Source: a virus (lineage: Duplodnaviria; Heunggongvirae; Uroviricota; Caudoviricetes). From it: a stretch of DNA of 64,000 nucleotides. The stretch lies in the IMG/VR virus record IMGVR_UViG_3300042484_000872, positions 48,338-112,337 of that record. One strand, 5' to 3'. Positions within the stretch are counted from its first letter, which is position 1. Every line of letters starts with the position of its first letter. The notes beneath the pieces were generated by a model. The model was not told the origin of the DNA. It saw only the letters and a program-made list of their open reading frames with translations, and did no database searches. The translations under genes and the position numbers were made by a program. Positions 1,774-46,153 of this stretch are shown here, in pieces.

Positions 1774-1779
1774 TAATTA

Positions 1780-2751: not shown

Positions 2752-2757
2752 AATTAT

Positions 2758-3237
2758 TTAATGTTTCCATTCATGGTATAGGTGTTGATACTTATCGTTG
2801 GTCTTTAAGTAATGTGATAAAAGTCTTGAGGTTAACCTAGAAGGTTTGAAATACCAAAGATCAGAATTCTTAAATCTTGCTGATTGCTTAAACCACATCC
2901 AACCAAAAAAATAACCTTCCGTATGATAATTAAAGTTATAAATAACTTTTCCTTTCTCTTTAGTTTTCTGCCAATCAATTGGTAAGTTGACAAACTCTTT
3001 ACCATCTATGTTATTTTTTAATCTTCTTCTTTTCTTTTTATTGATAGAGAATTCTCCAAAACCATATGGAAGCTTTGCTTTATCACCAGTCTCTAAAATA
3101 TATTCTTTAAATGATTCATTGTAGGTGTATAATATATTCCTCCACTCATCAAAAGTTAATTTTATAGTTGAGTTTTTTTTGCAAAACTGATTATAGTTAT
3201 CTTTGCTAGAGCTTCTCCAATCAATCTTTGTCCTCAT
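2758..3237 (-). CDS. hypothetical protein
   Basis: 159-aa ORF, operon context, start/stop abut neighbours. Confidence 0.5.
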   Translation of the reverse strand: MRTKIDWRSSSKDNYNQFCKKNSTIKLTFDEWRNILYTYNESFKEYILETGDKAKLPYGFGEFSINKKKRRRLKNNIDGKEFVNLPIDWQKTKEKGKVIYNFNYHTEGYFFGWMWFKQSARFKNSDLWYFKPSRLTSRLLSHYLKTNDKYQHLYHEWKH

Positions 3238-3965
3238 TAATTAGTTGGTTTTGAGTTAGGTGCTTGACCATCTATTCCTTCTGCACTAATGTCTGATTTC
3301 AAATTAAAATAAGTAGATAATAGTTTTTGTGAGGTAAGTTGTAACACTTGTTGTTCTAAGTATCCAGGAAGAGCAAATTCTTTATCTAAAGGATTCTTAC
3401 ATATCTCATCATTGGTGTATTGTGGAGATCCACATCCACATTCAGGATACATAATGTCATTAGTTACATCTTCTTCGAAGAATGCTACAAATCTAATTGC
3501 TTTAAGTAAAGGATTGTTCACATATAAATATCCATTAGTAATCCAGAAGTATTCTTCTTTTTTAATTACAGGAAGTTTAAGTAAGTTTAAATATCTATTA
3601 ATAGAGATTTCTTTTAACTTCTTCCCTTTACCACTCATGGCATTAATAGAATAAACTCCTTGAATAACATATTGGTAATTACCTTCTGATATACGTGGGA
3701 GTTTAAATTTAGTTCTAGCTATAGAACAAGGATCTACGTAGTTACAACATTCAGAAATAGATACCTCTATCATCTCTAGACAAGGGATAGTGGTAAATAA
3801 TGTATCAGTAGCCCAAAGCTTTCTAAGATTGGTTTCTCTCTTGATTAATAACAAGGAGTTGTTTCTTATCTCAGAAGCAATTGCTCTATCTGTAATAAGA
3901 CTATCTGTAGAAAGTATCTTGTGGACACTTCTAACATCTGATACTAATTTTCTTAATGTTGCCAT
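3237..3965 (-). CDS. hypothetical protein
   Basis: 242-aa ORF, 1-nt overlap with the downstream gene (translational coupling). Confidence 0.5.
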   Translation of the reverse strand: MATLRKLVSDVRSVHKILSTDSLITDRAIASEIRNNSLLLIKRETNLRKLWATDTLFTTIPCLEMIEVSISECCNYVDPCSIARTKFKLPRISEGNYQYVIQGVYSINAMSGKGKKLKEISINRYLNLLKLPVIKKEEYFWITNGYLYVNNPLLKAIRFVAFFEEDVTNDIMYPECGCGSPQYTNDEICKNPLDKEFALPGYLEQQVLQLTSQKLLSTYFNLKSDISAEGIDGQAPNSKPTN

Positions 3966-3967
3966 AA

Positions 3968-5200
3968 TTATATTCGGGTTTCGAACTCTGCTATTTTACC
4001 TAGCTTACTGTCATAAACTAGAGCAAGAGCTGCACGTACTGAGTGTACGAAGTTATTATCTAAGTGCCATCTATCAGTTCCTGAAAGACTAGGCATTTGT
4101 TGTATTCTTACACCTTTGACTTCTTTAGCCATATAGTGATGTTTATCTCCTGTGTGTATCTCTCTGTATTTAGCATTACCAAAGAAATGACTATATTCAG
4201 GATGTGTAGCAAACAATAAAGGAAGATCATCTAATTTACAATTACCATGGTGCCATCCAATAAATGTATTACCTAACACTTTAGCTTTGATAACTGAATG
4301 TTCTCTGATAAAATCTACATCCATAGCATCTTGAAAATATACATCTAATGCATGTGCTAAGTAGAAAGATTTAGTTCTATCATGATTACCCTGTACAAGT
4401 ACAACAGTTACATCACTAGCATACTGTCTCAGCATATTGATTGTATCTACAAGAACAGAGAATCCTAATTCATACTCTGAATGGTAATCCATTATAGTAT
4501 CTTGTGGTGTACCCTGTGTAGTTTGATGTTGGTAGTTATCAGTATGGAAGAAATCATTTGATATAGGAAGTACAACAGTGTTTATGTTGTAATTAGCTTT
4601 CACTTTACAGATCAAAGATTGAGCCACATTGAAATATCTTAAGGCTCTTGCTTTTGGATCATTGTCACCATCTACACATCTTTTAGCTAAATGGAAATCA
4701 GATAAAGATATTTCTACGTCTACATAATCTTTATCAGTAGTACGATCTTCTTTAATGATTGATACATTAGTTGGTTTGTAGTTTTCTAAAAACTTAGCAA
4801 AGTCTTCAGGAGAATAATCTTGTGGTTGTTTTCTTTTACTAAAGACTGAGGAAGTAAAACTTCCACTTGGTAACATCTTAGACCAATAATTGGTAATGAC
4901 GTATTTATCTAGGTTTATCTTATGTAGCTTAGCTAACTCAAGATCATCTTTAGGTTCAAATGCACTAGTGACAGTACTTTCTATTGTTCCTTTCTCAACA
5001 TTCACTTTTCTAGATTCTTCCATGAATTTAGTAGCAATTCCTACAAGCACATCATCAACATCATCTTTTTCTCTCAGCTCTTTTAGAAGATCATTCACTT
5101 CAAATTCACTTATTCCTAGTTTTTCTGCGTAGAACTTTTTACTTTTCTTTTGCCTTAATAATTCTTCTAATCTATGTAACAAGCTTTGATTTTCAGACAT
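3968..5200 (-). CDS. calcineurin-like metallophosphoesterase
   Basis: VVLVQGNHD (GNHD motif), GWHHGN and HTGDKHH motifs typical of the metallophosphatase fold. Confidence 0.5.
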   Translation of the reverse strand: MSENQSLLHRLEELLRQKKSKKFYAEKLGISEFEVNDLLKELREKDDVDDVLVGIATKFMEESRKVNVEKGTIESTVTSAFEPKDDLELAKLHKINLDKYVITNYWSKMLPSGSFTSSVFSKRKQPQDYSPEDFAKFLENYKPTNVSIIKEDRTTDKDYVDVEISLSDFHLAKRCVDGDNDPKARALRYFNVAQSLICKVKANYNINTVVLPISNDFFHTDNYQHQTTQGTPQDTIMDYHSEYELGFSVLVDTINMLRQYASDVTVVLVQGNHDRTKSFYLAHALDVYFQDAMDVDFIREHSVIKAKVLGNTFIGWHHGNCKLDDLPLLFATHPEYSHFFGNAKYREIHTGDKHHYMAKEVKGVRIQQMPSLSGTDRWHLDNNFVHSVRAALALVYDSKLGKIAEFETRI

Positions 5201-5285
5201 ATGTATTCATATTAGTTAAAAAATATCGTAAAGATAAACAATAGTTTTTATATATTCCAAATAATTTTAGTTAGAGCTGTAATTC

Positions 5286-5308
5286 TTTATAACTAAATTA
5301 GTTATAAA
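5286..5308. promoter_or_regulatory. perfect 11-bp-arm palindrome TTTATAACTAA-a-TTAGTTATAAA upstream of the phosphoesterase gene
   Basis: Read directly: the two arms are exact reverse complements. Lies ~85-108 nt upstream of the minus-strand start at 5200. Confidence 0.35.
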
Positions 5309-5340
5309 ACAAAAACTCCCCAGACAAATGCCTAGGGAGA

Positions 5341-5372
5341 AACCTTAGAAAACCAACAAACTAAGGTTTTTT
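5341..5372. terminator. stem-loop AACCTTAG-N12-CTAAGGTT followed by TTTTTT (A-run on opposite strand)
   Basis: 8-bp perfect stem immediately after the stop of the 5371..5664 minus-strand gene; possibly bidirectional. Confidence 0.35.
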
Positions 5373-5664
5373 AAATTGGTTCAATTGCAGTAGTAGTGGT
5401 AGTTGTAGTTGGTACAACTGTAGTAGTAGTAGTAGTTGTTGTCACTTCATCTAAAACTATATCAATATAATTTGTGCATGTACCAGTAGAAAGAACTCTT
5501 ACTACTGTTGTGTAATCAGGTACAAGAGAGGATGCATATCCTGCTTCTAAAGAAGCTTTAGCTACTCCCACTTCAAATGCTGATGTAAATCCATCAATAT
5601 TTGAATATAAGTTGAAAGGGCCTGAATCAGCCCCAGCTGTTGTTAATGTTAATAATACTGTCAT
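5371..5664 (-). CDS. tail-fibre-cassette paralog: N-domain (GPFNLYSNIDGF) plus poly-Thr linker only
   Basis: N-terminal ~75 aa homologous to the N-terminus of 7085..7999 (GDAGPFNLYSNIDGF...TNYIDV). Ends after the T-rich linker. Confidence 0.5.
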   Translation of the reverse strand: MTVLLTLTTAGADSGPFNLYSNIDGFTSAFEVGVAKASLEAGYASSLVPDYTTVVRVLSTGTCTNYIDIVLDEVTTTTTTTTVVPTTTTTTTAIEPI

Positions 5665-5681
5665 ATATATTTTGGTTTAAA

Positions 5682-7061
5682 TTAATCTTGTATCAATCTT
5701 ACTGATAACCCAACTTTTTTGCTATCAATAGTTAGTAAAGCCAATTCACTATTATAAAAAAGAGAAACTTTATCTGGATTAAGTGGTAGCGTATCAATTG
5801 TTGAAGTCCAGAATCCTGTTTTTTCACGAATAGATTCAAAATCTCCTGTACCACCATTTCTTTGACCTGCACCAAATGCTGTAAAACCACTTGTATCTGA
5901 AGCTCCTGTATTTGGACTATCCCAATGAGCAAGACCAACTTGTTTCATTTTTCCTCCTGCTACAATATCTTCTGCTAATGTATTTATATAACAAGCAAAT
6001 TCAGTTTTTGAAGGAACATGATAACCTACTGGTGCAAATCCACGAGGATCATTAACAGCGTACCAGTTATATAGTTTTCCATAATCTTCATTAAAAGGAT
6101 CATTATCGTACCAACACCATGCACCTGTTGTAAGAGATGACCAAGTAGTTGGATCTGTTACTTGAGGAATTGGATCTCCATTTTGATAGTCTGTTCCACC
6201 ATAATTAATTTTAACAAAACTAGCAATTACATCACATACAGTTGTTGTGGTAGTGGTTGTTGGAGGAACAGTTGTGGTAGTTGTAGTGGTAGGACAAGCT
6301 GCATCAATACAATCAGCTCCTATTGATATAATTACTAATGGATTATCTGCAATAGCACAACATCCACAAACTTTAAGTACTTCAGATGAAGTAATTATAG
6401 TGTCAATAACTTCACCAACACAATTGTTATATGAAATATTATGATCTACTGCACTATTATCTGTATTAGTAAATGTAATACATTGACAAGGAATATATAT
6501 TGTTGTTGTTGTACTTGTTGTTGAACTAGATGTTGTTGTTGTAGTATTACATGGACCTGTTGGTGTAGCATTAACTACTCCAGGAACAATAAGTTCACTA
6601 GCTGTTTCAATACAAACTGCTGTAATTCCTGGCAATAATACTACTGGTGTAGAAAGACCTGTTACACAATCAGTAACTGATATAATAACTGTATCTAAAG
6701 ATAAGTTATCTAAATTATATCCTTGACAAGGATATGCAGTTGATGTACTAGTAGTAGTGGTAGTTGAATCAATACAACCCCACACTGTTTCACAATCTAC
6801 AGAGTTATTAACTATTGTTGTAAATTGATTATATAAGTTAACATTATTAAGTATATTATTAATAATAGTTTCTACCATTCCAGGTCCACATATAAAAGAA
6901 TCAATTTTTATAAATGCTTCAGTGACAGTATCACAATTTGAAATACCTGTACATCCTAATTCAGGACCTACATACACCACTTCATCAGAAGAAGTTTTAC
7001 ATCCACAAGGATTTGGATTTCCACATCCACAAGTGTTAACAATATTATTTGAACAAGACAT
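5682..7061 (-). CDS. tail fibre / receptor-binding-like protein, Cys-rich N-domain, Thr-rich linkers, C-terminal FISUMP (Fib_succ_major-like) domain
   Basis: C-terminus has YGKLYNWYA, GYHVPSKTEF, GGKMKQVGLAHW, SGFTAFGAGQRNG and GLSVRLIQD, matching the Fibrobacter-succinogenes-major-paralogous-domain pattern. Starts MSCSNN. Confidence 0.6.
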   Translation of the reverse strand: MSCSNNIVNTCGCGNPNPCGCKTSSDEVVYVGPELGCTGISNCDTVTEAFIKIDSFICGPGMVETIINNILNNVNLYNQFTTIVNNSVDCETVWGCIDSTTTTTSTSTAYPCQGYNLDNLSLDTVIISVTDCVTGLSTPVVLLPGITAVCIETASELIVPGVVNATPTGPCNTTTTTSSSTTSTTTTIYIPCQCITFTNTDNSAVDHNISYNNCVGEVIDTIITSSEVLKVCGCCAIADNPLVIISIGADCIDAACPTTTTTTTVPPTTTTTTTVCDVIASFVKINYGGTDYQNGDPIPQVTDPTTWSSLTTGAWCWYDNDPFNEDYGKLYNWYAVNDPRGFAPVGYHVPSKTEFACYINTLAEDIVAGGKMKQVGLAHWDSPNTGASDTSGFTAFGAGQRNGGTGDFESIREKTGFWTSTIDTLPLNPDKVSLFYNSELALLTIDSKKVGLSVRLIQD

Positions 7062-14412: not shown

Positions 14413-15975
14413 TTAGAATTGTGGCATTTCCTCAATCAACACAGTTCTAGACAAATCTTCAATAAATACATCACATCTGTCTTTCATCCAGATTTCGTAT
14501 CCTGGGAATTTATTAGCAGAGCTCATACCTTGAGATTTAGCAAAACCTAAGTGATGACGAGTTCCATCAATATAACCCCAAGTCATAGAAGGAGCACCTT
14601 TCATACGTACTTCTCTAATGTTGTTTACCATTGAACCATCAGACATTGGAGAAACATCAAACACCATAAATACAGGCGTAGATTTTTTGTTTTGTCCAAA
14701 CTCTAAGTTAGATTGTGGTAAATCTAATTCTTTTAAGTGAATCAATTCAACTCTACCAGTCTCACGAGTTACCATTGCATCAAATGCAAAGTTGTAAGTG
14801 ATATGTTGTCCTTCACCTTGCATGTATCTGTTTCCAGAATCAGCCATGAAAGTAAGACCTGAATTTAATGCATCTGTTTTCAAAGCTTGTTGGAATACAT
14901 CGAATCCAGCTTCATTAGTATACATTTTTACACTTCTATCTTTCACATCCACTCTTCTGTAGAATAAATCTCCAAATACAGAACGGATTAAGTTAGCAGA
15001 GAATTCACCTCTGTTATATTGTACCAAGTTTCCATTGTTACGCATTCTGTGATATACACCAGCAGATGTTCTTTTCAATTCTTGTTTAGAACCTCCAGAT
15101 TTAACTGTACCTGGTTTAGCCCAGATCATACGTTTAACTTTCAATTCAATCATTGACTTACGCATCCAGAATTCAATAAACGGTTCCCATTTAACATCAT
15201 TACGTGTAAGTGGTAATTGGTTACGTCTTTGTGGAGCATATACCAAAATGTCTAATGGTTTACCAGAAGCATCTCTCATCATTTTGTCATCAGCCCATTC
15301 TGTGATTTTGTGCTCATATCCATATGCAGAACCTAATGATTCAAACATTGTGATTTGCTCACCTAATCTTGGAAGACCTAATAAATCTTGATCAAACTCA
15401 CCAATAGCTGCATCAACTAATTCTAGTTCTACACCATATTGTAAGAATACAGGATTAACAAAATCAACTTGTGGATTATCAGTTACTAATGTAAATGAAT
15501 ACAAGTATCCCATATTCCAAGGTAATGGATCTTTGATCACGTAGAAACGTGGACCATATTGACGTGTACCTACAGAGATGATAGCATTTTTAGAAAACTC
15601 ATTAGTATCTAATACTAATTGGAATTCTTGACCATCGATACCTGTTTTACCAAGATCAATTAAATCTTGTGTAGAAGAAGGAATGTCAATAATTTTTGGG
15701 AATTTGTAAGGAACTGCTACTTGCCATTTCCATGCATCACTATTATTATCAATATAATAAGGTGTGCTTTTGTTGATCATGTCTAAGAAGTCATTACTGT
15801 AAAGTGAGCTCTGTGTATAAAGACTGATGATTTTTTTATCATAGTCTGCAGGCTCAGTAGAGTGAAAACTCTCTAAGTGGTTAGAGTCTGTTAGTTTTCC
15901 TACTGCACGTTTGTCCATAGACGCTACACGAGCATAAGTAAAACCAGTTAACCCAGGAATTGTTTGAATTGCCAT
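14413..15975 (-). CDS. putative major capsid protein
   Basis: 520-aa ORF directly downstream of the scaffold-like gene in a portal-scaffold-capsid order. No motif-level confirmation. Confidence 0.4.
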   Translation of the reverse strand: MAIQTIPGLTGFTYARVASMDKRAVGKLTDSNHLESFHSTEPADYDKKIISLYTQSSLYSNDFLDMINKSTPYYIDNNSDAWKWQVAVPYKFPKIIDIPSSTQDLIDLGKTGIDGQEFQLVLDTNEFSKNAIISVGTRQYGPRFYVIKDPLPWNMGYLYSFTLVTDNPQVDFVNPVFLQYGVELELVDAAIGEFDQDLLGLPRLGEQITMFESLGSAYGYEHKITEWADDKMMRDASGKPLDILVYAPQRRNQLPLTRNDVKWEPFIEFWMRKSMIELKVKRMIWAKPGTVKSGGSKQELKRTSAGVYHRMRNNGNLVQYNRGEFSANLIRSVFGDLFYRRVDVKDRSVKMYTNEAGFDVFQQALKTDALNSGLTFMADSGNRYMQGEGQHITYNFAFDAMVTRETGRVELIHLKELDLPQSNLEFGQNKKSTPVFMVFDVSPMSDGSMVNNIREVRMKGAPSMTWGYIDGTRHHLGFAKSQGMSSANKFPGYEIWMKDRCDVFIEDLSRTVLIEEMPQF

Positions 15976-20009: not shown

Positions 20010-22040
20010 TTATCTAAACAATTTATTTTTTGGTGTGTTAAACATTGATCTGCTTTCTGTAAACAGTCTATTCAGTTTGTTCTTTTTGAACATTGATTGT
20101 ATTCTTACATCTTGCTCTCCTCCTATTTTTCCCATGATGGGATCTAGTTTCATTGCTAAAGCTATTGCTAACTCAGCTGCAATGATTCTATCAAAGTTAC
20201 CTGATTCATTATATTGGATCATCTCTTCAAGAAGAACAGGATCAAATATCTTGGCCATACCTTTTGTCTCAGACTTAATGTTTCCATCTTCATCCTTCTC
20301 TGTATGTATCACTTCTTCTGTATACTTCTTAAGACATCCGTGTAAGAAGTCTCGTATTTTCTCAGAAGATCTATGTATTCCGTAATCCCTTCTTACTGTG
20401 GTGTTTGGAACAATCTCTTTCAACCAATCTGGTTGTCTCTCTAAATAATGTGCATCTCCTTTAGCTATCATGTAGTCAATAAAAGATATTTCATCATTCT
20501 CACATAGAGCTCTAGCATTATAATACTTGATTAAGTATCTAGCTTGTTCTTCCCATGTTTCTTTCTTCTCTGGTCTAGCACAATAACTAGCTACAAACAT
20601 ATCTTGATACTTCTCTCCTGATATAGCATGCATACGTTTGTATATGTATACAGATCCTAATGAACTTGAATATGCAGATTTACCTTGTCTATAAGGGTCA
20701 ATCCCTGCAACATATAATCCATATGGAGGAGATTCAACAGGGAACTCATATATCACTACAGGAGCTTCTTTGTTATCACTATTCTTAAGTGGGAAGTTTG
20801 ATATAGGCACCTTATCACTAAACTCATGTTTTACACCATCACCATCATCATATAAAACAACAGGTGTTCCTGTTCTTTCTTGTGCTAATAGTCTGGCTTT
20901 CTGACGTTTAGATGCTTCAATATCAAATATGTTCGTATCCTCATTTAAGAATATATCATCCACTTCTTGTGGGTAATACATCTTCTCTTTTAAATAAGCT
21001 AGTCTATCACCAGCTTTCTTTAATCTGTCAAGGTTATCATTTGTAATCTTATCTGCTTTCTCTTCATTAGATACTAACATCTTTACATTATGTAATTCTG
21101 ATTCTGCTGGTTGTTCAAGATAGGCTCCAAGTGTAGAGTCTTCCTTAGCTTCCATTCTATACTTATGTGAGATGAATAGTCCATGGATTCTTTGATCATC
21201 CTTTGCACTATTATATTCCAGGAAGTTGAAATTGGCTACATCAAACATTAAGCTTTTTGCATCCATGAAATTCTGCATATCTCCACCTGTACCTGTAAGT
21301 ATAGGCGAACATCCCCAACCAAATGGTGTGGTGAAACCTGGTGTAGCTGCTTGTAATCCTCTAAGGAAATTACCCTTACCTATCTCATCAATAATAAGCC
21401 TTCTAGGTTTTGTACCTGCAATAGCCTCTTCATTATTACCACCATCTAAGTTACGAATAAGGATCTGAGAAAAGGGGATTCTCTCTCCTGCTTTTGTCTT
21501 GATCCCTAATGTAACTTGGTTTTTCCAGTTGTCTTCCACCCTCTGCCATCTCCAGGCTTCAGGTAGGAAGTTTAATCCTTTGTCAATCTTATCTGTGATA
21601 AGCTTTATATCGGGAGCATTCAATCCTGCTATAATGTTTTGGGAATTCTCATCGAATGTTGCCCCATGACCTATGTAGGAACTCTCAATTACTGACTTAG
21701 CTAAACGACGAATGCCTAATATTACTAGGCCTTTCTTTTCGTTGTGTGCTCTATCTATTTCATTTGTTATAATCCACTCATTATCACGTAGATATGGATT
21801 AGCATATTTTTGATTAATCCTTCCACGATCATCTATAATATCCACCTCTGTATTCCAGAAGTTTAAATGCCAATATAGAAAAGGGTTAATATATACTCCT
21901 CCCATTGTACAGCCATCAATACATAGTTGTTTATGGAAAGCATAAAATGCTTTATACTCTTCTGAATCCTTTGATGGAACTCTCTTTTGATTGATAAACC
22001 AATCTCCGTATTCAATACTCTGTAAGCCATCGATCATCAT
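20010..22040 (-). CDS. terL: terminase large subunit
   Basis: Deviant Walker A LGIRRLAKS (gp17-like), Walker B LIIDEIG, C-terminal nuclease-like VAGIDPYRQG (catalytic Asp). 676 aa. Confidence 0.7.
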   Translation of the reverse strand: MMIDGLQSIEYGDWFINQKRVPSKDSEEYKAFYAFHKQLCIDGCTMGGVYINPFLYWHLNFWNTEVDIIDDRGRINQKYANPYLRDNEWIITNEIDRAHNEKKGLVILGIRRLAKSVIESSYIGHGATFDENSQNIIAGLNAPDIKLITDKIDKGLNFLPEAWRWQRVEDNWKNQVTLGIKTKAGERIPFSQILIRNLDGGNNEEAIAGTKPRRLIIDEIGKGNFLRGLQAATPGFTTPFGWGCSPILTGTGGDMQNFMDAKSLMFDVANFNFLEYNSAKDDQRIHGLFISHKYRMEAKEDSTLGAYLEQPAESELHNVKMLVSNEEKADKITNDNLDRLKKAGDRLAYLKEKMYYPQEVDDIFLNEDTNIFDIEASKRQKARLLAQERTGTPVVLYDDGDGVKHEFSDKVPISNFPLKNSDNKEAPVVIYEFPVESPPYGLYVAGIDPYRQGKSAYSSSLGSVYIYKRMHAISGEKYQDMFVASYCARPEKKETWEEQARYLIKYYNARALCENDEISFIDYMIAKGDAHYLERQPDWLKEIVPNTTVRRDYGIHRSSEKIRDFLHGCLKKYTEEVIHTEKDEDGNIKSETKGMAKIFDPVLLEEMIQYNESGNFDRIIAAELAIALAMKLDPIMGKIGGEQDVRIQSMFKKNKLNRLFTESRSMFNTPKNKLFR

Positions 22041-23523: not shown

Positions 23524-24102
23524 CTATTTATATCTAATATTAAACTTTTTACTTTTATTAACACCTCTACAATTTGATGATATATTACTTTGAGATACAT
23601 TTAAAAACTCTGCAGCTTTTAATGATGATTCAAACTCTTGTATTATATTATTACTATCATCTAACAAAAGTACAATTTTTTGTTTAGTTAAACCTAATTT
23701 TTTATTATGTTCACTACTTCTAATTACAGTTCTTCCTTTTAATGAGTTAGCTATTTTTAATCTAGTTTCTTTTTTAACTTCCCTTCCTAAACAATTTCCT
23801 GCAACTGGAGTAGCATTATACCCACTGCTATATGAGTTATATTTATCTATATAATACTGTTCTTGTAAAAGAATGTTTTCATTACTGCATGTTTCTACTA
23901 TTTCAAAAATAAAACTATCTTCTCCGTATTTATTCCAAGCTCTTTGTAACTTAATTGAATGATGTTTATTCTTTTTAAGATTAGTTATATGACATCTTTT
24001 TCGTTTAGTTAATCCATGAATAGATGATCCTATATATACTTTATCTGTAGATATATTTTTTATCATGTAAATAACTCCTTCATATATCTGACTTAGGCTC
24101 AT
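23524..24102 (-). CDS. GIY-YIG homing endonuclease
   Basis: GVIYMIKN...KVYIGSS (GIY...YIG), conserved R/H/N downstream, C-terminal basic DNA-binding region. Confidence 0.65.
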   Translation of the reverse strand: MSLSQIYEGVIYMIKNISTDKVYIGSSIHGLTKRKRCHITNLKKNKHHSIKLQRAWNKYGEDSFIFEIVETCSNENILLQEQYYIDKYNSYSSGYNATPVAGNCLGREVKKETRLKIANSLKGRTVIRSSEHNKKLGLTKQKIVLLLDDSNNIIQEFESSLKAAEFLNVSQSNISSNCRGVNKSKKFNIRYK

Positions 24103-24442
24103 TGATTTTTGGTTTTAATGTTTTGATACTTGTTTCTAGTATTTGTAATTTTAATGTTACAGCATTTCTTCTTACATCTGTTATAGATGGATCTGCTAAC
24201 ATATTCTCATAAGCTTTCTTAATAGCTAATAACTTATTATATTGTGTAAGAGCTTTCTTCTCATTGAAATAGAATTTACCAAATCCAGAAATCTCTACAC
24301 TCTTATTAACATTGAGAGCATCATTGGCAGAATCAAACTGATGATTAATCACTTGCTCAATAATCTTCTCAGATATAACAAGGTTAATTGACATCTTTTT
24401 GATGATCCACTCCTTCACTGACATTGATTGTGGTTTCTTCAT
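24080..24442 (-). CDS. hypothetical protein
   Basis: 120-aa ORF; true start may be an internal Met, reducing overlap with 24384..24782. Confidence 0.4.
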   Translation of the reverse strand: MKKPQSMSVKEWIIKKMSINLVISEKIIEQVINHQFDSANDALNVNKSVEISGFGKFYFNEKKALTQYNKLLAIKKAYENMLADPSITDVRRNAVTLKLQILETSIKTLKPKINEPKSDI

Positions 24443-24782
24443 GTACTAGTTTTATATCTAATGTTAAATCTTTTGTAAAATCTATAATGATGATGGGATT
24501 TACCTTCACCTTTCCATTCTCCTTAATGAATATACCAATTCTTTTAAGTTTACTGATGATGTTATTAATAGAAGGAGATGTACTATTATATGTTCTGCAG
24601 AATTCTTCTCTTACATTAGCATATGTAATGTTTCCTTTAATAGCTGTAAAAGATATCAATTGAATCTCTCTTTCTGTTAGATGAAGATTGTTAATAGCAG
24701 ATAGTATACTATAATACTTCTCAGCTAATTGAATGTCTGTAGAAACATCCTTCTTCAGTTTTTGTATAATCATTGGTTTCAT
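24384..24782 (-). CDS. hypothetical protein (first gene of leftward transcription unit)
   Basis: 132-aa ORF abutting the divergent switch region. Confidence 0.45.
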   Translation of the reverse strand: MKPMIIQKLKKDVSTDIQLAEKYYSILSAINNLHLTEREIQLISFTAIKGNITYANVREEFCRTYNSTSPSINNIISKLKRIGIFIKENGKVKVNPIIIIDFTKDLTLDIKLVHEETTINVSEGVDHQKDVN

Positions 24783-25083
24783 AATGTAGTTTTATCTAAT
24801 CATATGACAAAGATATACAATAAACACATACAATGTATACTTTTTTATTTACCAATGCTATATTATGAAGTTTTTCTATATAGCTGTACTAGATAACCTC
24901 GCCCAACCACCACCCCAAAGGTATAATATAATTCTTATATCTACCAAATTTTTTTTAAATTTTTTTTTTCAAAATTTAGAAAGGTGTTATATGTGTGGTT
25001 GTGTAGAGTACTTCCAATCAGCTACCCCACCTATGTTTGGGTGAGCGGGGTGCTCCCCCATTAACAATTAAAAAACAGAAATT
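24783..25083. promoter_or_regulatory. divergent intergenic switch region, probably holding promoters for both arms
   Basis: Every gene to the left is minus-strand and every gene to the right is plus-strand. Contains poly-T/A tracts, a TATGTTTG (TAnnTTTG-like) box at 25032-25039 and a GC-rich hairpin-capable patch ccccacc...gggtgagcggggtgctcccccat. Confidence 0.4.
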
Positions 25084-25437
25084 ATGGCTATTCAAACAGT
25101 GAATGCAAAAGACATCTTAGGGATTCAAACAATTAGTGCACCAATGCCTTATGCTAAGGGAACAAAAATGGAAGGACAATTCTATCGTAGATTTAACTAT
25201 GAAGGTAAAGTGTTTATCAGTAATGATGAATCATTCTTTAATGAATTAGAAGCAGGAGGAATTGAGAGCTTAAAGCTTGATACTAATGATGAAGGTAAAC
25301 TTGCTTTAGTTAGTTATGTTACCTTTAAGAAATTGATTGGATTAAAACGTAATGAAATTACGCTTGAATCTATGACTGTTGAGAACTTCAAGCCTACAGT
25401 TAAAGAAAGTGTAGAAGCATATGAAGACTTAGGTTAA
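25084..25437 (+). CDS. hypothetical early protein
   Basis: 117-aa ORF, first gene of the rightward arm, followed by a strong intrinsic terminator. Confidence 0.6.
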   Translation: MAIQTVNAKDILGIQTISAPMPYAKGTKMEGQFYRRFNYEGKVFISNDESFFNELEAGGIESLKLDTNDEGKLALVSYVTFKKLIGLKRNEITLESMTVENFKPTVKESVEAYEDLG

Positions 25438-25440
25438 TGA

Positions 25441-25464
25441 AAAGGCTCTAACGAGCCTTTTTTT
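25441..25464 (+). terminator. rho-independent terminator AAAGGCTC-taac-GAGCCTTT + T7
   Basis: 8-bp perfect stem and T-run read directly after the stop at 25437. Confidence 0.6.
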
Positions 25465-25467
25465 ACG

Positions 25468-25817
25468 TATATAAATATGTAATATATCCTACCTATATAT
25501 ATATAGGAGTAAAAAAGTTTATTTCTTCCTAGTGGAAAAGTTTATTATCTATATATATTATGGGTTTTAGGTAGTTATAACGTTGTATGTTGTAGCAAAC
25601 TATTGTAAAACATTACCTCAAGGTATATATAAGTAATAAAACTTTTTACGAGGGAGAAAAAAACTTTTATTTAGTTAAATGCTTGATAATCAGACATAAT
25701 TTATTTTTGTTTGATGTTTATTTGAGTGTTAAAAGGTGGACGTGGAGACATAGACACAATAATGAAGCATAAATCATAAGACAACAAATCATTAAATAAT
25801 CAAATATATATAGCATT
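25468..25817. promoter_or_regulatory. 350-bp AT-rich non-coding region with a 16-bp palindrome and iterated AAAAGTTTATT motifs (candidate origin or promoter cluster)
   Basis: CCTATATATATATAGG perfect palindrome at 25492-25507. AAAAGTTTATT direct repeats at 25513 and 25536, with inverted-orientation copies (aataaaactttt, aaacttttatt) near 25636-25660. TATTTTTG box near 25703. Confidence 0.4.
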
Positions 25818-26021
25818 ATGAAGACAATAGCAGAACAAGTGGTAGCATCAATGAACAATCAAGCAATAGATGTTCTATATAATAGATTAGAACTATTAGA
25901 AGATGATTTTATTAATGGTCTTATATCATATATAGATTATTCTTTTTCTAAAGATGATATTGTTAATGATATACATTGTATTCTTTCTGAATATTTATGT
26001 CCAATTGATTTATACATATAA
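25818..26021 (+). CDS. hypothetical protein
   Basis: 67-aa ORF. Confidence 0.45.
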   Translation: MKTIAEQVVASMNNQAIDVLYNRLELLEDDFINGLISYIDYSFSKDDIVNDIHCILSEYLCPIDLYI

Positions 26022-26070
26022 TTATAGGCTCTTCTTAGGGCCTTTTTAAAACTCCTTAATAACAAATAAA

Positions 26071-26382
26071 ATGAACAAACATTTAACAAATGAACAAATA
26101 GATAACAGACTTGGTGCTGTTATGAATGCATTTAAAGAAGAGAATGCTACAAGTGTAATGAATATGAACTCTGTAGCTAGTTTATTAACTTCTGGTACAT
26201 ATAGTATCAATGGTGATGCTGAGATTAATGAGCAAGTAGCTAAATCAATCAAGAGATTGACAAGCTTTGTTAATAGAATATCTGATATAGTGCATAAAGG
26301 CACTGAAGAATGTGATCTTGATTCTCAAATTGATGAGAATCGTAAATTTTGGGAAGAACTTAAATCAATATTAAATCCTTAA
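26071..26382 (+). CDS. hypothetical protein
   Basis: 103-aa ORF; TCCTTAATAAC motif 7 nt upstream of the ATG. Confidence 0.5.
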   Translation: MNKHLTNEQIDNRLGAVMNAFKEENATSVMNMNSVASLLTSGTYSINGDAEINEQVAKSIKRLTSFVNRISDIVHKGTEECDLDSQIDENRKFWEELKSILNP

Positions 26383-26387
26383 TAATT

Positions 26388-26594
26388 ATGAAATCAACAA
26401 AAATTATGTTAGCTTTTATAGCTACGCTTATCGCTACATGGACTCTATTTAGTCTTATTGGATATTTATTATCTGATATGTCATTAAAAGAATGTTACAC
26501 AAATGGTGGAACAATTGGTTGTATGGCTGTATTTGGTTGGATACCAAGTATTATTGTAGGTGCAGATATTAGTGATAAACTTAACAACTATTAA
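26388..26594 (+). CDS. small membrane protein
   Basis: 68 aa, two hydrophobic segments. Confidence 0.45.
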   Translation: MKSTKIMLAFIATLIATWTLFSLIGYLLSDMSLKECYTNGGTIGCMAVFGWIPSIIVGADISDKLNNY

Positions 26595-27970: not shown

Positions 27971-28468
27971 ATGAGCACACAAACATCAGGTGGAATATTC
28001 ACCTTTGACCATGGTCAAAAAAAACTTAACCTTGCAATTGGTGTATCACCAGAATATTTAGAGGATCTTGGTACACAAGTATCAAATCTATTGAAAGATT
28101 TTATTTTTGATGATGATAAAAATCTTAGAGAAGATACATCACCAAGTCAATTAGTAGAAATATGTGCTAATGAGTTTAGTTATTCTCAATTAGTAGTTTT
28201 AGCATCATTCTATCTACAAGATAGAGTAGATGGATTTGCTAAGAAATTAGAGGACAAATTGAAAAATATGAAATCATCAGCTAAAGCTATAAGATTAAAT
28301 AGTGATGATGTTCCAGATAACATCAAAGAGATGCTTGAAAATCTTACAGAAGGACGTAGTGAAGGTGATCCAATTGATGGTGATTCATTACCACAAGAGC
28401 TTAAAGACTTTCTTGATAAATTAGCTGAAGAGCAACAAAGACAAGAAGGAGATGGTGATGATGACTAA
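27971..28468 (+). CDS. hypothetical highly acidic protein
   Basis: 165 aa, ends EGDGDDD. TCCTTAATAAC directly abuts the ATG. Confidence 0.5.
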   Translation: MSTQTSGGIFTFDHGQKKLNLAIGVSPEYLEDLGTQVSNLLKDFIFDDDKNLREDTSPSQLVEICANEFSYSQLVVLASFYLQDRVDGFAKKLEDKLKNMKSSAKAIRLNSDDVPDNIKEMLENLTEGRSEGDPIDGDSLPQELKDFLDKLAEEQQRQEGDGDDD

Positions 28469-31479: not shown

Positions 31480-31713
31480 TTTGATTAATTATTTGGTTTG
31501 TTACTCCCTGTAGATTATATTTGCAGGGATATTGTATAATCACTGGGGACTATAAACGCCACATAGCAGTTTAAATAGTCAATGTATGTGCTGCGTATCA
31601 TTGAACTTACCTATATTATGCATATTATGAGTTTAGAACTCACTAGAGTGATACAAAAAGAATAGGGAAGCTGAAAACTATATAGAGTAGGTACAAAATT
31701 AAACCAATGAACA

Positions 31714-31896
31714 ATGAAGTATCTAATAAGTATAGTCTTTACGTTCTTATCTGTATTAGCCTTTATGAAACTATTGTTTCTATTGAATAAGGGCAATACT
31801 GTTGCAAATGTTTTTGCTATAGTAGGTATATTCTTATTGGGATATATAATTGCAAGAACAAAGTTATTTACACAATTAAAATCAAAGAAAAAATGA
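31714..31896 (+). CDS. small membrane protein
   Basis: 60 aa, hydrophobic, overlaps the lipoprotein start by 4 nt. Confidence 0.3.
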   Translation: MKYLISIVFTFLSVLAFMKLLFLLNKGNTVANVFAIVGIFLLGYIIARTKLFTQLKSKKK

Positions 31897-32738
31897 AAAA
31901 AGTAGTATTATTAGGAGCATTAGTTGCTATGTTTGCAACATCATGTACAACAGCTGACTCAAGTGAAGTGGCATTAGTGGTAGATCAAATTGGAAATGAT
32001 AAGGGAATTCCAAACATTCAAATGGAATCAGGATTCATATTCTATTTCCCACCAACACAAGATGTATACACCTATCCAACATCTGTACAACATAAAGTGT
32101 GGAGTGCAGACAATCAAGAAGGATCAGAAACAGATGAGCACATTGATGTAACATCATCAGATGGAGCTACATTTGGTCTTGATGTATCTATAAACTTACA
32201 ATTACAAAGAGCTAAGGCATCAGAGTTGTTTATAAAATACAGAGTGGACATGGATGAGTTGATACATACAAGAGTAAGAACTATTGTTAGAAAAGAATTA
32301 TTAGATAATGCTGTTAACTTTGCATCAGATAGTCTTTTACAACATAGAAATATATATGAGGCCAATGTAACTAAGACATTAACATTATCATTAGAGAAAG
32401 AAGGATTCACATTGAATAACATTGCTGTATTAAAGATGGCATTACCATCATCATACAAGAAAGCTATTGAAAGAAAGATTGCTGTGTTACAAGAAACAGC
32501 AACTATCATCTCTCAGACTAAACAAGCTGAACAAACAGCATTGAAGAAAGTGGCATTAGCTAAGGGTAATTACGAAGCAGCACAATATGATGCTAAGACA
32601 AAAGAAATCTTATCACAACCTAAGCTTCTTGAATTATACAGAGCAGAAACAGAAAGAGTATGGGCAAATAAAGGCAGATCTCCATATGGTTCTAATAATG
32701 TATTTGGTTCTGCATCTGGAATTCTTTTAAATAGATAA
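31893..32738 (+). CDS. lipoprotein, SPFH/band-7-like
   Basis: Signal peptide with lipobox MKKVVLLGALVAMFATSC. The rest has prohibitin/HflC-like helical segments (weak, by eye). Confidence 0.5.
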   Translation: MKKVVLLGALVAMFATSCTTADSSEVALVVDQIGNDKGIPNIQMESGFIFYFPPTQDVYTYPTSVQHKVWSADNQEGSETDEHIDVTSSDGATFGLDVSINLQLQRAKASELFIKYRVDMDELIHTRVRTIVRKELLDNAVNFASDSLLQHRNIYEANVTKTLTLSLEKEGFTLNNIAVLKMALPSSYKKAIERKIAVLQETATIISQTKQAEQTALKKVALAKGNYEAAQYDAKTKEILSQPKLLELYRAETERVWANKGRSPYGSNNVFGSASGILLNR

Positions 32739-33048
32739 TTGCACAGTGGTCCTACATCCACACACATTAAACTTGTAGGATTGGTCTCTGATGTTAGGGA
32801 ACACTTGTGAGTTGCAATGATAAAACTCTCAAACAGGCTAAACATTGAACCAGATAGTGCATGAGGCCCATGCTACGAGTAACTATCAAAGATACTATCA
32901 GTAATGGTAGTTGGATGTTATGATGAATGGTGCTCTCTATGACAATTTGCACATAGGAGCACACATTTATCTAATTCAATTTTAAGATTATTAATATAAA
33001 TGCTTGGTACTAATCATTTTTATTTGTACATTTGTAAAAAATATTATT

Positions 33049-33534
33049 ATGTGGAAACAAATAGAAGACTATGATTATGAAATAAATCCTGAAGGAATAG
33101 TAATGAGAATTTCAACTAAAAGAATTAAAAAATCTTTTAAAAGACCTGATGGATACATTGGTATTCAATTGTACAAATCTAAAACAGAGATTAAAAACTT
33201 TCAGTTACATAGATTAATAGCAATTGCATTTATTAATAATCCTGAAAACAAAGACATTATTAACCATAAAGATTCAAATAGAGAAAACAATTCTTTAAAT
33301 AATCTTGAATGGGTAACAAAAAAAGAAAATGACAAACATGCTTATGAATTTGGTAATGCTTCAAACAAAGGTTCTAAAAATGGTTTTTCTGTATTAACAG
33401 AAGAACAAGTATTGAAAATAAGAAAAAAAAGAGCAGAAAATAAACTAACTTATCAAAAATTAGCAGAGTTGTATAATGTTTCTTACGGTTGTATTGCAGG
33501 TATAATACAAAGAACAAATTGGAAACATATTTAA
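33049..33534 (+). CDS. HNH homing endonuclease (HNH_3 / NUMOD4-type)
   Basis: MWKQIEDYDYEINPEGIV... start context, HRLIAIAF, INHKDSNRENNSLNNLEWVTKKEN. Start moved to Met-16 of the track ORF. Confidence 0.6.
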   Translation: MWKQIEDYDYEINPEGIVMRISTKRIKKSFKRPDGYIGIQLYKSKTEIKNFQLHRLIAIAFINNPENKDIINHKDSNRENNSLNNLEWVTKKENDKHAYEFGNASNKGSKNGFSVLTEEQVLKIRKKRAENKLTYQKLAELYNVSYGCIAGIIQRTNWKHI

Positions 33535-34169
33535 AATAATCTAAACCCTGACAGAAACTGTATAGTAATATATAGAATGGATATAGCTGTATGAGATATG
33601 CTATTATGTACCATTGGGAGTTCTCAGCAAGTAGTTAATCAGGTGTGAGTTCAGTAATCCTCCCAATTACACATCGAAAGGAGGTAATTAACTACGTGAC
33701 CCTACTCTTATATCTAACAATCGTAATTGATTTGCAGAAACAATAGTACATAAGAACAGACTATAAGAAAGAGGGTGCTAAACAATATTTAAAGCTCGAG
33801 GCTCAATCATTTGATTTGAGCACGCTACCTCGGACTATGATAAGTGTCCTCACATGAGGAATTTGGGCTCGACTGGAATTGACTGGTTATTATAGATTAT
33901 ACAATTCAGCCAGAGAGATAACTGTAAACTAAGGTGAATTATTTTAAATGGCAAAAACACAAGTCGTGTAGTGGCTCTAGGAGCAAACGCACAAATCGAA
34001 GCTAATATGAACAAAGTATTCTCATTATTAAATGAGGATGTAATCGTTGGTTTAGCAGCCTAAATTACCTCAAGATTTCTCTATTAGATTAAATAGAGTG
34101 GTGGGAACGTTAAGCCTAGCTTGACCCTAAATAAGCTGTATAAAATTGTATTTTTGAAGTAAGCAACAC

Positions 34170-34194
34170 GAGGGTTCGAATCCCTCCGAGTCCA
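34170..34194 (+). other. orphan tRNA 3' fragment (T-arm GAGGG-TTCGAAT-CCCTC + acceptor 3' strand CGAGTCC-A)
   Basis: Canonical T-arm read directly. No complementary 5' acceptor strand (GGACTCG) anywhere upstream. Confidence 0.35.
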
Positions 34195-34215
34195 CTGATT
34201 ACCAGTTAGTTAAAT

Positions 34216-34326
34216 GATTGAGTGGCGGAATTGGTAGACGTTATGTTATGTACAGATACTAAGCAGAAGTGAGATTGCTGTACTAAGCTCACATCCTGAA
34301 TACAGGTTCGAATCCTGTCTCAATCA
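34216..34326 (+). tRNA. tRNA-like gene, class-II-type D-arm, ~20 nt longer than a canonical tRNA; anticodon not assignable by eye
   Basis: 5' GATTGAG pairs perfectly with 3' CTCAATC. D-arm TGGCGGAATTGGTAGACG, T-arm ACAGG-TTCGAAT-CCTGT, discriminator A. The middle 60 nt contains a duplicated ACTAAGC and stems GTACAG/CTGTAC and GTGAG/CTCAC. Confidence 0.4.
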
Positions 34327-34547
34327 CAGCAGTTACTTGACGCAAATAGCACAGTAACAGACATTGGATAGTTTGCACATCACGAATGTTAAGTCCTTTC
34401 CACGCAGAGAAGGAGTTGAGTACTTATAGGGAAGAAATGTTCCTAATCTCAACAATTGACATCTCCCAAGGGAGAAGGTCCTATTAAAGCCTCTATTAAC
34501 ATAGGGGCTTTTCTTATTATGTATTAATCCTTAATAACTAAATAACA

Positions 34548-35330
34548 ATGAAAGAAAAGTTTATACCTTATACAAAGAAAAAGTATTCTATTACATCTGA
34601 TGGATTAGTTTATTCTAACTATAAAAATACTAACATTGGTGGAAAGTTTTATGAAAAGAAACTTATCAGCAAATATCTACAACAAAATTGTGCTGTTCTT
34701 AATTTACAATTTGGTAAATGGTCCAAAACCAATAAATCAACAACTGTTTTTATGAATACATTAATGAAAGATATATTTAAATTAAAAAAACCAGATACAT
34801 TTCATATGTATGATTTAAGACCTAAGAATGGTAATGTGTTCGATAGTTCATTAGATAATCTAGAATGGAGAATTAGATCCACTTCTGATTTCAATTTCTA
34901 TCCTCAACCATATTATGATAAAAAAGGCAATATAACATCTAAACGTTGCTCACATTGTGGAGAGATACATGATATTAATCGATATGTATTACAGAGGCCT
35001 AAGAGACCAGATGAGAATAATACATATAAGAACAAATGTAAATCTTGTAGACATGATCAAGAATGGAAACTTATAAATTCAGATGATAAAAAACTTGCTA
35101 GATATAAAGAACAACAAAAAAGATATACAAATTCTGAAAAAGGAAAAGCTTATCATAGAGAATATGGAATAGTTTGGTCTAAAAAAGATTATGATAGAAT
35201 AGGTGATCATTATATAAGTAATTGCTTAAAAGTAACAAGAAAAGAATTAACACCAGAATTACGAGAAATATTTAAAAAGAAAATAACCTTAAAACGAAAA
35301 TTAGAAAATCATGGCAACAAAGAAAATTAA
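34548..35330 (+). CDS. HNH-like endonuclease with Zn-finger (HNH_3-like LDNLEW motif)
   Basis: EKFIPYTKKKYSITSDGLVYSNY (NUMOD4-like), FHMYDLRPKNGN...LDNLEWRI, CSHCGE...CKSC zinc finger. TCCTTAATAAC 9 nt upstream. Confidence 0.45.
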   Translation: MKEKFIPYTKKKYSITSDGLVYSNYKNTNIGGKFYEKKLISKYLQQNCAVLNLQFGKWSKTNKSTTVFMNTLMKDIFKLKKPDTFHMYDLRPKNGNVFDSSLDNLEWRIRSTSDFNFYPQPYYDKKGNITSKRCSHCGEIHDINRYVLQRPKRPDENNTYKNKCKSCRHDQEWKLINSDDKKLARYKEQQKRYTNSEKGKAYHREYGIVWSKKDYDRIGDHYISNCLKVTRKELTPELREIFKKKITLKRKLENHGNKEN

Positions 35331-37162: not shown

Positions 37163-37459
37163 ATGGAAGCTAAAGATATAATCGGTAAAGAGATAGAATG
37201 TTTTGAGTTTAAAAGTGAAAACTTACTATCATACTCAAATCAACATAAACAATTATGTGGTAAAAAAGCTATTGTTCTAAACATAAATGAGTCTTATCCA
37301 CAATTTACTCTTGTAGAAATCACTTTACCAATTGGTAAAAAAGAGTCAAATCATTATCCTACAGCAGGTATCATTGAGCAATTAGAAGCAAAAGAGCTTG
37401 AGAATTTAACAATAGAAGAAATTCTAAACAACATGAAGATGCTAACGTCAAAAATATAA
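37163..37459 (+). CDS. hypothetical protein (paralog of 37463..37729)
   Basis: Shared ...GKE(I/M)..F(E/K)F...LT(I)E(E/Q)ILNN(M/I)K(M/K)LTS(K/E) C-terminus with the next gene. Confidence 0.5.
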   Translation: MEAKDIIGKEIECFEFKSENLLSYSNQHKQLCGKKAIVLNINESYPQFTLVEITLPIGKKESNHYPTAGIIEQLEAKELENLTIEEILNNMKMLTSKI

Positions 37460-45340: not shown

Positions 45341-46153
45341 ATGTTATATCTTTGTCATATGAAAATAGATATAGCCCTTAGAAAAGTGACTGGTATATAT
45401 AAAATTACCAACACTATAAACAATAAATCATATGTAGGAAGTTCTGTTGATGTATATCAAAGAGGATGTATGTATAAGCACTTAATCAAAAGAAAGAAGT
45501 TACATAACAAACATTTACAGTCAGCTGTAGAGAAGTATGGATATGATAATTTTACATTTGAAGTCTTAGATAAGTGTGAAGAAGGTACATCTGTTTTTGA
45601 TTTGCATCAATTAGAACAATCTTACATAAACAAAATTAATCCTGAGTACAATAAAAGAACTGTTGTAGACACAAATCATTTACTTTCACATTCTCAAGAA
45701 ACTAAAGATAAAATATCTAATAGTTTGAAAGAATCTTTTAAGAATGGTAGTAAAGTTATCAATCGTATACAAGAACATAATATAAAAGTTAGTCTATTTG
45801 ATCTATCTGGAAATCATATTCAAGATTTTCCAGGATTAGCTCATTGTGCTGATTTTGTAGGAGTGAAGTATCAGAGCGTAACTTTTGCTATAAACAGTGA
45901 AAGAAGAAGAGTTAAGAATTACATAGTGCTACGTACAGAGGAATCTAATTTGGTAAAAGATTTTCTAAACATACCTAAATTAAATTATGCTAAAAAAGTT
46001 ACAGTTCTAGATATAATTACAAATGAGACATTACAATTTATTAATTGTAAACTGTGTGCAGAATTTATAAATTGTAAACCAACAACTGTAAAAAAATGTT
46101 ATGAGAATGGTAAAATTTGGAAAAACAAATACAAAATAATAAACTATGAGTAA
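45341..46153 (+). CDS. GIY-YIG homing endonuclease
   Basis: GIYKITNTINNKSYVGSS...R...KHLQSAVEKYG...FEVL...E. Alternative start at 45359. Inserted between the helicase fragment and the intact helicase gene. Confidence 0.65.
   Translation: MLYLCHMKIDIALRKVTGIYKITNTINNKSYVGSSVDVYQRGCMYKHLIKRKKLHNKHLQSAVEKYGYDNFTFEVLDKCEEGTSVFDLHQLEQSYINKINPEYNKRTVVDTNHLLSHSQETKDKISNSLKESFKNGSKVINRIQEHNIKVSLFDLSGNHIQDFPGLAHCADFVGVKYQSVTFAINSERRRVKNYIVLRTEESNLVKDFLNIPKLNYAKKVTVLDIITNETLQFINCKLCAEFINCKPTTVKKCYENGKIWKNKYKIINYE

Follow-up and report, generated by a model that had tools for sequence, protein, structure and literature searches.

A conserved non-coding hub at the head of the early genes of an uncultured crAss-like phage and its possible role in early-transcription control

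A 350-nt gap between genes (25468-25817) in a 64-kb stretch of phage DNA, hereafter the window, had been singled out from the sequence alone as a candidate replication origin or early promoter cluster. We find that this gap belongs to a wider hub of ~1 kb (24783-25817, with one 117-aa gene inside) that is built from the same ordered elements in more than 50 related alleles and is centred on a nearly invariant 33-bp core. The reading we favour, to which the sequence comparisons lend about an even chance, is that the gap forms the chief part of a conserved non-coding hub that would control the first rightward early genes. The second of the two original proposals, a regulatory hub or promoter cluster, fits with the position of the gap at the head of the plus-strand early/replication block, its host-type promoter-like module, its ordered and conserved spacing and the motif at the start codon. 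Under the favoured reading, a sequence-specific architectural protein, the leading candidate being the HU/IHF-family protein of the phage itself, would bind the core and its diverged partner and bend the DNA. The bend would place the upstream CC(TA)nGG palindromes and the downstream segment, from the S and Q elements to ATATAGCATT, on the same helical face, and early transcription would thus be turned on or off. This particular phage appears to have acquired an extra host-type promoter, which separates the core from S. The coordinates of the elements are collected in Table 1.

Table 1. Elements of the hub and nearby or related genes, in window coordinates
Feature	Position	Strand	Remarks
HU/IHF-family protein	24080-24442	-	phrog_379, 1.6e-8; PDB HU/IHF chains, E 1.3e-3 to 0.09; PF00216 weak
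132-aa winged-helix protein	24384-24782	-	first gene of leftward block; AF2 pLDDT 78, H-H-H-H-beta-beta topology
Bacteroidota-type promoter-like site, TTG-N15-TATCTTTG	24808-24833	-	pattern scan; upstream of 132-aa gene
Inverted ATATAGCATT copy	24854-24863	-	faces leftward operon
AAGTTTTTC and CTATATAG box (24875-24882), after inverted ATATAGCATT copy	24854-24882
Intrinsic terminator of 117-aa gene	25439-25466	+	hairpin 25439-25462, then U7
TATA palindrome (T-box) CCTATATATATATAGG	25492-25507		CC(TA)nGG box adjoining core in relatives
Diverged, oppositely oriented second core copy	25511-25546	+	A6GTTTATTTCTTCCTAGTGGAAAAGTTTATT; holds both AAAAGTTTATT repeats
T-box CTATATATATT	25549-25559
T-box GGTATATATAAG	25622-25633		directly upstream of core
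33-bp core	25637-25669		31 nt AAAACTTTTTACGAGGGAGAAAAAAACTTTT (25638-25668) invariant
Optional host-type promoter-like module TTGATAATCAGACATAATTTATTTTTG	25683-25709	+	TTG-N16-TAnnTTTG
S-Q segment TTGAGTGT ... ACGTGGAGACATAGACAC	25722-25757	+	~85 and ~65 nt from gene start
T-box and M motif AATATATATAGCATT	25803-25820	+	ATG of 67-aa gene directly after
Homing-endonuclease gene	23524-24102	-
Homing-endonuclease gene	33004-33534	+
Homing-endonuclease gene	34548-35330	+
Homing-endonuclease gene	45341-46153	+

Phage genome and composition of the gap

The window derives from a distant, uncultured crAss-like phage. Pfam searches identified a crassvirus major capsid protein gene (14413-15975, minus strand) and a P22-like portal, whereas PHROGs profiles identified the large terminase (20010-22040, minus strand) and, on the plus strand, a DNA polymerase, a DnaB-like helicase, a ParB-like protein, Sak4, a primase, rIIA/B and a UvsX-like recombinase. 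The best match of the capsid protein is to a Leptolyngbya phage, at 26% identity, and megablast of 24700-26400 against phage records returned no close cultured relative. Late genes occupy the minus strand and early/replication genes the plus strand, the two blocks diverging at 24782/24865; the gap is located 0.7 kb to the right of this strand switch and is bordered by a terminator on the left and a 67-aa gene on the right. The presence of TTG-N14-16-TAnnTTTG sites, together with the lack of Shine-Dalgarno sequences, suggests a host from the Bacteroidota.

Several other features of the window were recorded along the way. There are four free-standing homing-endonuclease genes, two of the GIY-YIG and two of the HNH type, one of them 1.4 kb from the hub, and in relatives the hub is also a hot spot for gene replacement and contig breaks. 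The phage carries a tmRNA gene (33865-34197, plus strand; Rfam, 49.9 bits), with the tag peptide ANAQIEANMNKVFSLLNEDVIVGLAA predicted by ARAGORN, followed by a 111-nt match to the tRNA model (34216-34326, plus strand) that ARAGORN does not call and that is possibly a tRNA interrupted by an insertion. A match to the DUF805b RNA motif (31661-31693, plus strand; 36.7 bits against a threshold of 35.6) is placed in a 413-nt gap upstream of a lipoprotein-like gene (31893-32738), in a region that includes the CTATATAG palindrome, with a host-type promoter-like site (31498-31523) upstream of it.

The gap under study is AT-rich, as had been noted: its GC content is 24.0%, compared with 31.9% for the window, which places it in the lowest 0.5% of 350-nt windows. 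It was likewise correctly said to hold no ORF of at least 60 aa, the sole ORF of at least 30 aa that touches it being a 46-aa frame on the minus strand (25718-25858). The description of the genome as otherwise tightly packed is roughly true, but there are other long gaps, at 24783-25083, 31480-31892 and 33535-34547. The strong terminator reported on the upstream side is indeed there (-13.1 kcal/mol, z = -4.95), and its hairpin is the same in relative L001. The 16-bp palindrome is also present; however, it lies 25 nt past the T-run rather than immediately after the terminator, and on its own it is no rarer than chance, with three perfect 16-bp palindromes in the window against a mean of 2.35 in first-order Markov simulations. 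The other two, TTTGACCATGGTCAAA and TTTACCAATTGGTAAA (28004-28019 and 37324-37339), lie within plus-strand ORFs.

Two direct copies of AAAAGTTTATT (25513-25523 and 25536-25546) are spaced by 23 bp, and inverted copies, one with an extra T (25636-25647) and one with a single mismatch (25658-25668), follow ~100 bp downstream, in agreement with the sequence-only reading. Taken together, the direct and inverted copies form a 45-nt inverted repeat with 80% complementarity (arms 25513-25557 and 25624-25668), and the repeat pair with the long inverted repeat yields folding z-scores of -6.2 (RNA) and -4.7 (DNA). AAAAGTTTATT as such is not enriched over the window (11 matches with at most one mismatch versus 8.2 expected). 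TATATATA occurs eight times in 64 kb, and six of these occurrences, at four sites, fall within the block; across 46 relatives, TATATATA boxes are enriched 3.5-fold in the hub. Neither the clustering of TATATATA nor the repeat pair is random, and both have been conserved among relatives. The T-boxes and the M motif did not match the host promoter consensus, a search of 24700-25900 against Rfam gave only a chance match to mir-1277 (E 0.68), and a generic sigma-70 scan was uninformative, with 22 sites versus 24.9 expected.

Anatomy and conservation of the hub

The repeats had been described as iterons. They are present, but comparison with relatives identifies them as parts of a diverged, inverted second copy of a much better conserved 33-bp core, which lies in the inverted copies downstream and had been overlooked. 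The core consists of two A4-5CT4-5 half-sites, 22 bp apart, that flank ACGAGGGAG, and it is unique in the window even when three mismatches are allowed. Its exact 23-mer is single-copy in each of 17 contigs from IMG/VR and 46 contigs from metagenomes, and the core is identical even though the neighbouring proteins are only 60-90% identical between genomes. The second copy is identical or nearly so in four relatives (L001, L021, L020 and L173); with its palindrome it spans 25492-25546, and the intact copy spans 25622-25669. A scan for the core 18-mer in 185,579 bacterial and archaeal species genomes produced chance matches and one contig flanked like the phage hub, and a host-derived or attachment site was therefore rejected. 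A literature search for the core sequence found no paper. In practical terms, the invariant 23-mer can serve as a probe to retrieve this phage clade from metagenomes.

Relatives were gathered through the 117-aa protein (3 loci), the 132-aa protein (216, of which 80 were kept) and the exact 23-mer, which is found in 17 distinct IMG/VR contigs (18 stretches) and in the 46 metagenome contigs. All relatives found independently, by their flanking proteins, show the same ordered modules. In the orientation of the genes, a stop codon and terminator are followed by TATATA with two GGGTGGG, a CC(TA)nGG palindrome and the core AAAAACTTTTTACGAGGGAGAAAAAAACTTTTT; then come an optional insert, TTGAGTGT with a GTGTAGACC-like element and, after a stretch rich in A and C, ATATATAGCATT with the ATG. 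Common to the more than 50 related alleles are TATA palindromes, an invariant core of 31-33 bp, an optional promoter, a segment of fixed length (~100 nt) and ATATAGCATT at the ATG. There is some variation on this plan. For instance, a TATATATA box takes the place of the spacer ACGAGGGAG in some relatives, two relatives (L061 and L064) carry arrays of three to four A4(G/C)T3 units that alternate with TATATATA at a 24-29-bp period, and another lineage keeps CTTTCTACGAGGAG within an inverted repeat of 14-15 bp. Gene content associated with the presence of the core is dominated by phylogeny, the top association being with a 63-aa protein of unknown function. GGGTGGG is missing from this window; in most relatives (L003, L005, L007, L010 and others), TATATA(A)GGGTGGG-N11-14-GGGTGGG lies upstream of the core, and the pair provides four G3 runs, hence a possible G-quadruplex. 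In L014 and L038, the second GGGTGGG pairs with CCCACC ahead of a T-run, which resembles a terminator.

The orientation of the core is variable: it is inverted, between unchanged flanks, in 12 of the 54 distinct alleles (~22%), and the inverted alleles are dispersed across the tree of the neighbouring gene. Furthermore, the core alone forms no stable fold (-1.6 kcal/mol, z about 0). The orientation freedom, the scatter on the tree and the lack of a fold of its own speak against the core acting as a promoter or as RNA, and a hairpin or RNA element was rejected on the grounds of the unstable fold and the orientation flips. The steps of ~10.35 bp in the distance between core and gene, described below, point to a site at which an architectural protein would bind double-stranded DNA, as far as can be judged from the sequence. 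The E. coli IHF consensus WATCAANNNNTTR has no counterpart in the core (25637-25669).

Downstream of the core, the promoter-like module constitutes a 51-nt insert between the core and the S element in ~20 alleles. TATTTTTG (25702-25709) agrees with the -7 element TAnnTTTG, and CTTG stands at the -33 position with a 16-nt spacer, an N14-16 format that also precedes five other transcription units in the window; in Bacteroides promoters, the spacer from TTTG to TAnnTTTG is normally 19-21 nt. The S and Q elements keep fixed distances from the gene start across the family, the segment being aligned in ungapped register in 55 relatives, and RNAalifold found no consensus fold in the S-M segment. The M motif (ATATAGCATT) is followed by an ATG within 0-15 nt in 56 of 66 unique instances in relatives, where it abuts the start codons of many different early genes.

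The distance from the centre of the core to M falls into classes of 105, 124, 145, 156, 167, 177 and 197 nt, with the ranges 103-108 nt (29 alleles) and 153-157 nt (20 alleles) being the commonest and the class at 145 nt covering 144-145 nt. All seven share one phase at a period of 10.35 bp (Rayleigh R = 0.92-0.94, p = 0.0015-0.005 against simulated random insert sets), with the qualification that several length classes have an insert family in common and may not all represent independent events. The core, in either orientation, keeps the same helix face relative to the first early gene. Nature has in effect supplied a ready-made series of spacing and orientation mutants, in the form of insertions in steps of ~10.35 bp and of inversions.

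On the left side of the hub, the promoter-like site upstream of the 132-aa gene is conserved in relatives, and AATGCTATATTATGA is conserved in ~60 of them. The 17-mer ATATCTTTGTCATATGA, which includes TAnnTTTG, is found here (24800-24816, minus strand) and again at 45343-45361 (plus strand), at the start of a GIY-YIG gene whose annotated ATG (45341) may be placed too far upstream. The 117-aa gene is preceded by a non-coding leader of ~200 nt (24883-25083, plus strand), conserved in ~60 relatives, that contains the C-rich CCCA(A)CCACC..CCAAAGGTA, phased T/A tracts, GTGTAGAG/GACC and CCCCACC...GGGGT...CCCCC; RNAalifold found no consensus fold in this leader, and a 59-aa ORF at 24865-25044 is probably spurious.

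Two genes for DNA-binding proteins, one HU/IHF-like and one with a winged helix, lie within 1.5 kb of the hub. The former protein is a candidate binder of the core. The 132-aa winged-helix protein, for which we found 1925 homologues, may be a regulator of the hub, given its structural model: Zur, MarR-family proteins and the N-terminal domain of T4 MotA are among the best 50 of 1,245 Foldseek matches (E <=10). JGI calls about ten of its homologues 'TATA-box binding protein'; the names given to others include MarR-family regulator and biotin operon repressor. A TBP acting on the TATA boxes was considered and rejected, as there is no Pfam TBP match, the profile finds no TBP in the PDB and the AF2 model is a winged helix; no TBP occurs among the same best 50 of the 1,245 Foldseek matches, and the winged-helix model leaves the JGI label unsupported.

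Transcription control, replication and other readings

The main competitor of transcription control is a replication origin, possibly one activated by transcription, which would be compatible with a hub. In such an origin, an initiator or an architectural protein would occupy the iteron-like half-sites, the (TA)n palindromes would melt and nearby promoters would provide activation or a primer. Several properties are in line with this possibility, including the single-copy, orientation-free and ultra-conserved core, the variable A4(G/C)T3 / TATATATA arrays of L061 and L064, the low GC content of the block (24%) and its place at the head of the replication genes. Furthermore, origins have been predicted at an equivalent position in the prototypic crAssphage (PMC10983915), so that the idea is still reasonable. 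The cumulative GC skew, proposed as a check, does reach its minimum at 24-25 kb, but this minimum coincides with the switch of gene strand (24782/24865), and the mean skews of the left (-0.086) and right (+0.198) blocks indicate that gene orientation explains the V shape. The duplex stability of the block ranks only third to fourth, with several comparable sites in the window. Iteron origins typically have at least three direct repeats of 17-22 bp at about two helical turns; this window has two half-sites 23 bp apart and two inverted ones 22 bp apart, and L061 and L064 have 3-4 units at 24-29 bp. The expected iteron-binding initiator did not materialize: searches of the neighbouring ORFs against PHROGs, Pfam and the PDB gave no Rep/O/DnaA-like protein, the nearest DNA binders being the HU-like and winged-helix proteins. 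In addition, relatives carry the M and T-box motifs upstream of further early genes as well, a location suggestive of expression signals, and the phasing relates to the start of a gene. Given the location of the skew minimum at the strand switch and the failure to find an initiator gene, we regard an origin role as possible but rather unlikely. Somewhat more speculative is a combination of the two functions, in which the core and the CC(TA)nGG palindromes would make up an undescribed HU-assembled switch of an aquatic crAss-like clade, serving both as a licence for early transcription and as a transcription-primed origin; if so, the early transcription under this switch would perhaps be carried out by an injected polymerase.

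An injected enzyme is central to another reading, whereby the CC(TA)nGG palindromes and ATATATAGCATT would be immediate-early promoters of a virion-packaged RNA polymerase, by analogy with N4. Supercoiling would melt or extrude the palindromes, and near-leaderless mRNAs would begin with the purine that follows the TATA run. This would account for the confinement of TATATATA clusters, within 64 kb, to the block, for the enrichment of these boxes in the hubs of relatives and for the adjacency of M to the start codons of several early genes; in phi14:2, early genes are read by the virion polymerase, an enzyme that works on denatured DNA. However, a motif shared by the upstream regions of the phi14:2 early transcripts was not found and the early non-coding region of that phage lacks the motifs described here, the polymerase gene, if there is one, lies outside the window, and the hairpin of the 16-bp palindrome (-5.3 kcal/mol, z -0.8) is no more stable than those of shuffled sequences, making promoters of this kind improbable, to our mind.

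A packaging signal or physical genome end, be it pac/cos or the border of a terminal repeat, was considered because, out of 80 related contigs, 28 stop within 4 kb of the 132-aa gene on this side, compared with 3 on the other side, three contigs terminate 16-33 nt from the core and short terminal repeats have been reported for crAss001 (PMC8042965). The contig ends are nevertheless scattered over many positions, as in assembly-graph breaks where conserved motifs border hypervariable DNA, and a precise terminus could not be derived from them. Moreover, contigs from three samples read through the block without a difference, two over all 380 nt and one over the first 165 nt, and directional packaging does not sit easily with a site that is free in its orientation. 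The scattered breaks and the identical read-through contigs make a fixed end very unlikely. Even less credible is a programmed switch that flips the core by phase variation. The two orientations do occur between near-identical flanks, for instance in L193 versus L003, and are scattered on the tree, but the flipped unit measures only 23-33 bp, the neighbouring genes searched include no recombinase and the same orientation was observed in three samples. Ongoing inversion was rejected because the flipped form of this allele is absent from the JGI metagenome contigs; this absence, along with that of a recombinase, renders a programmed switch unlikely.

Control of early transcription by the hub, the reading we favour, is in keeping with observations on phi14:2, where strong transcription of long stretches between genes, at the beginning of the early block, is seen already at the first time point (bioRxiv 10.1101/2020.03.07.982082). 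Next to nothing has been mapped of the early promoters, regulators and origins of crAss-like phages, for which this clade provides a compact and highly conserved test set, comprising a 33-bp single-copy site, TATA palindromes, a start-codon motif and two adjacent genes for DNA-binding proteins.

Comparison with known systems

Among phages of the same broad group, phi14:2 provides the nearest parallel in layout. Like the hub, its g004-g006 region opens the rightward early block with long pieces of non-coding DNA, and these give rise to abundant early long non-coding RNAs (bioRxiv 10.1101/2020.03.07.982082). The motifs are not shared: bases 1-7000 of phi14:2 lack TATATATA, GGGTGGG and ATAGCATT, and the short matches present there are isolated ones (one A4ST3 and one ACGAGG). 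The early promoters of N4 share with the hub the clustering of short palindromes at the early end of the genome and an injected polymerase as the probable reader. They differ in that the N4 hairpins have a stem of 5-7 bp, a 3-nt loop and a defined sequence, whereas the palindromes of the hub are (TA)n with shuffle-like stability; neither the palindrome nor the core (z 0) forms a stable hairpin of the N4 type. Invertible promoters combine a segment of at least 100 bp flanked by inverted repeats, a recombinase and both orientations in one population, and this combination was not found for the core.

Iteron origins, such as lambda ori, those of plasmids with iterons and P4 ori/crr, resemble the hub in the 22-23-bp spacing of repeats in both orientations, in the A-tracts and adjacent AT-rich DNA and in the variable number of repeats among relatives. 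The hub departs from them in having no recognised initiator gene, in having only 2+2 half-sites in this phage and in being held in helical register to the start of a gene.

Sites for architectural proteins of the IHF/HU type are known from sigma-54 promoters, lambda attP, the pSC101 origin and, for TF1, the early promoters of SPO1. As a putative binding site, the core departs from such sites in that it lacks the IHF consensus, has an invariant central ACGAGGGAG and occurs together with CC(TA)nGG palindromes and with a second copy of itself that is diverged and inverted. It resembles them in its length of ~33 bp, the A/T tracts on both flanks, its single copy, its large tolerance of orientation, the helical-phase constraint to a downstream element and the nearby gene for a phage HU-family protein.
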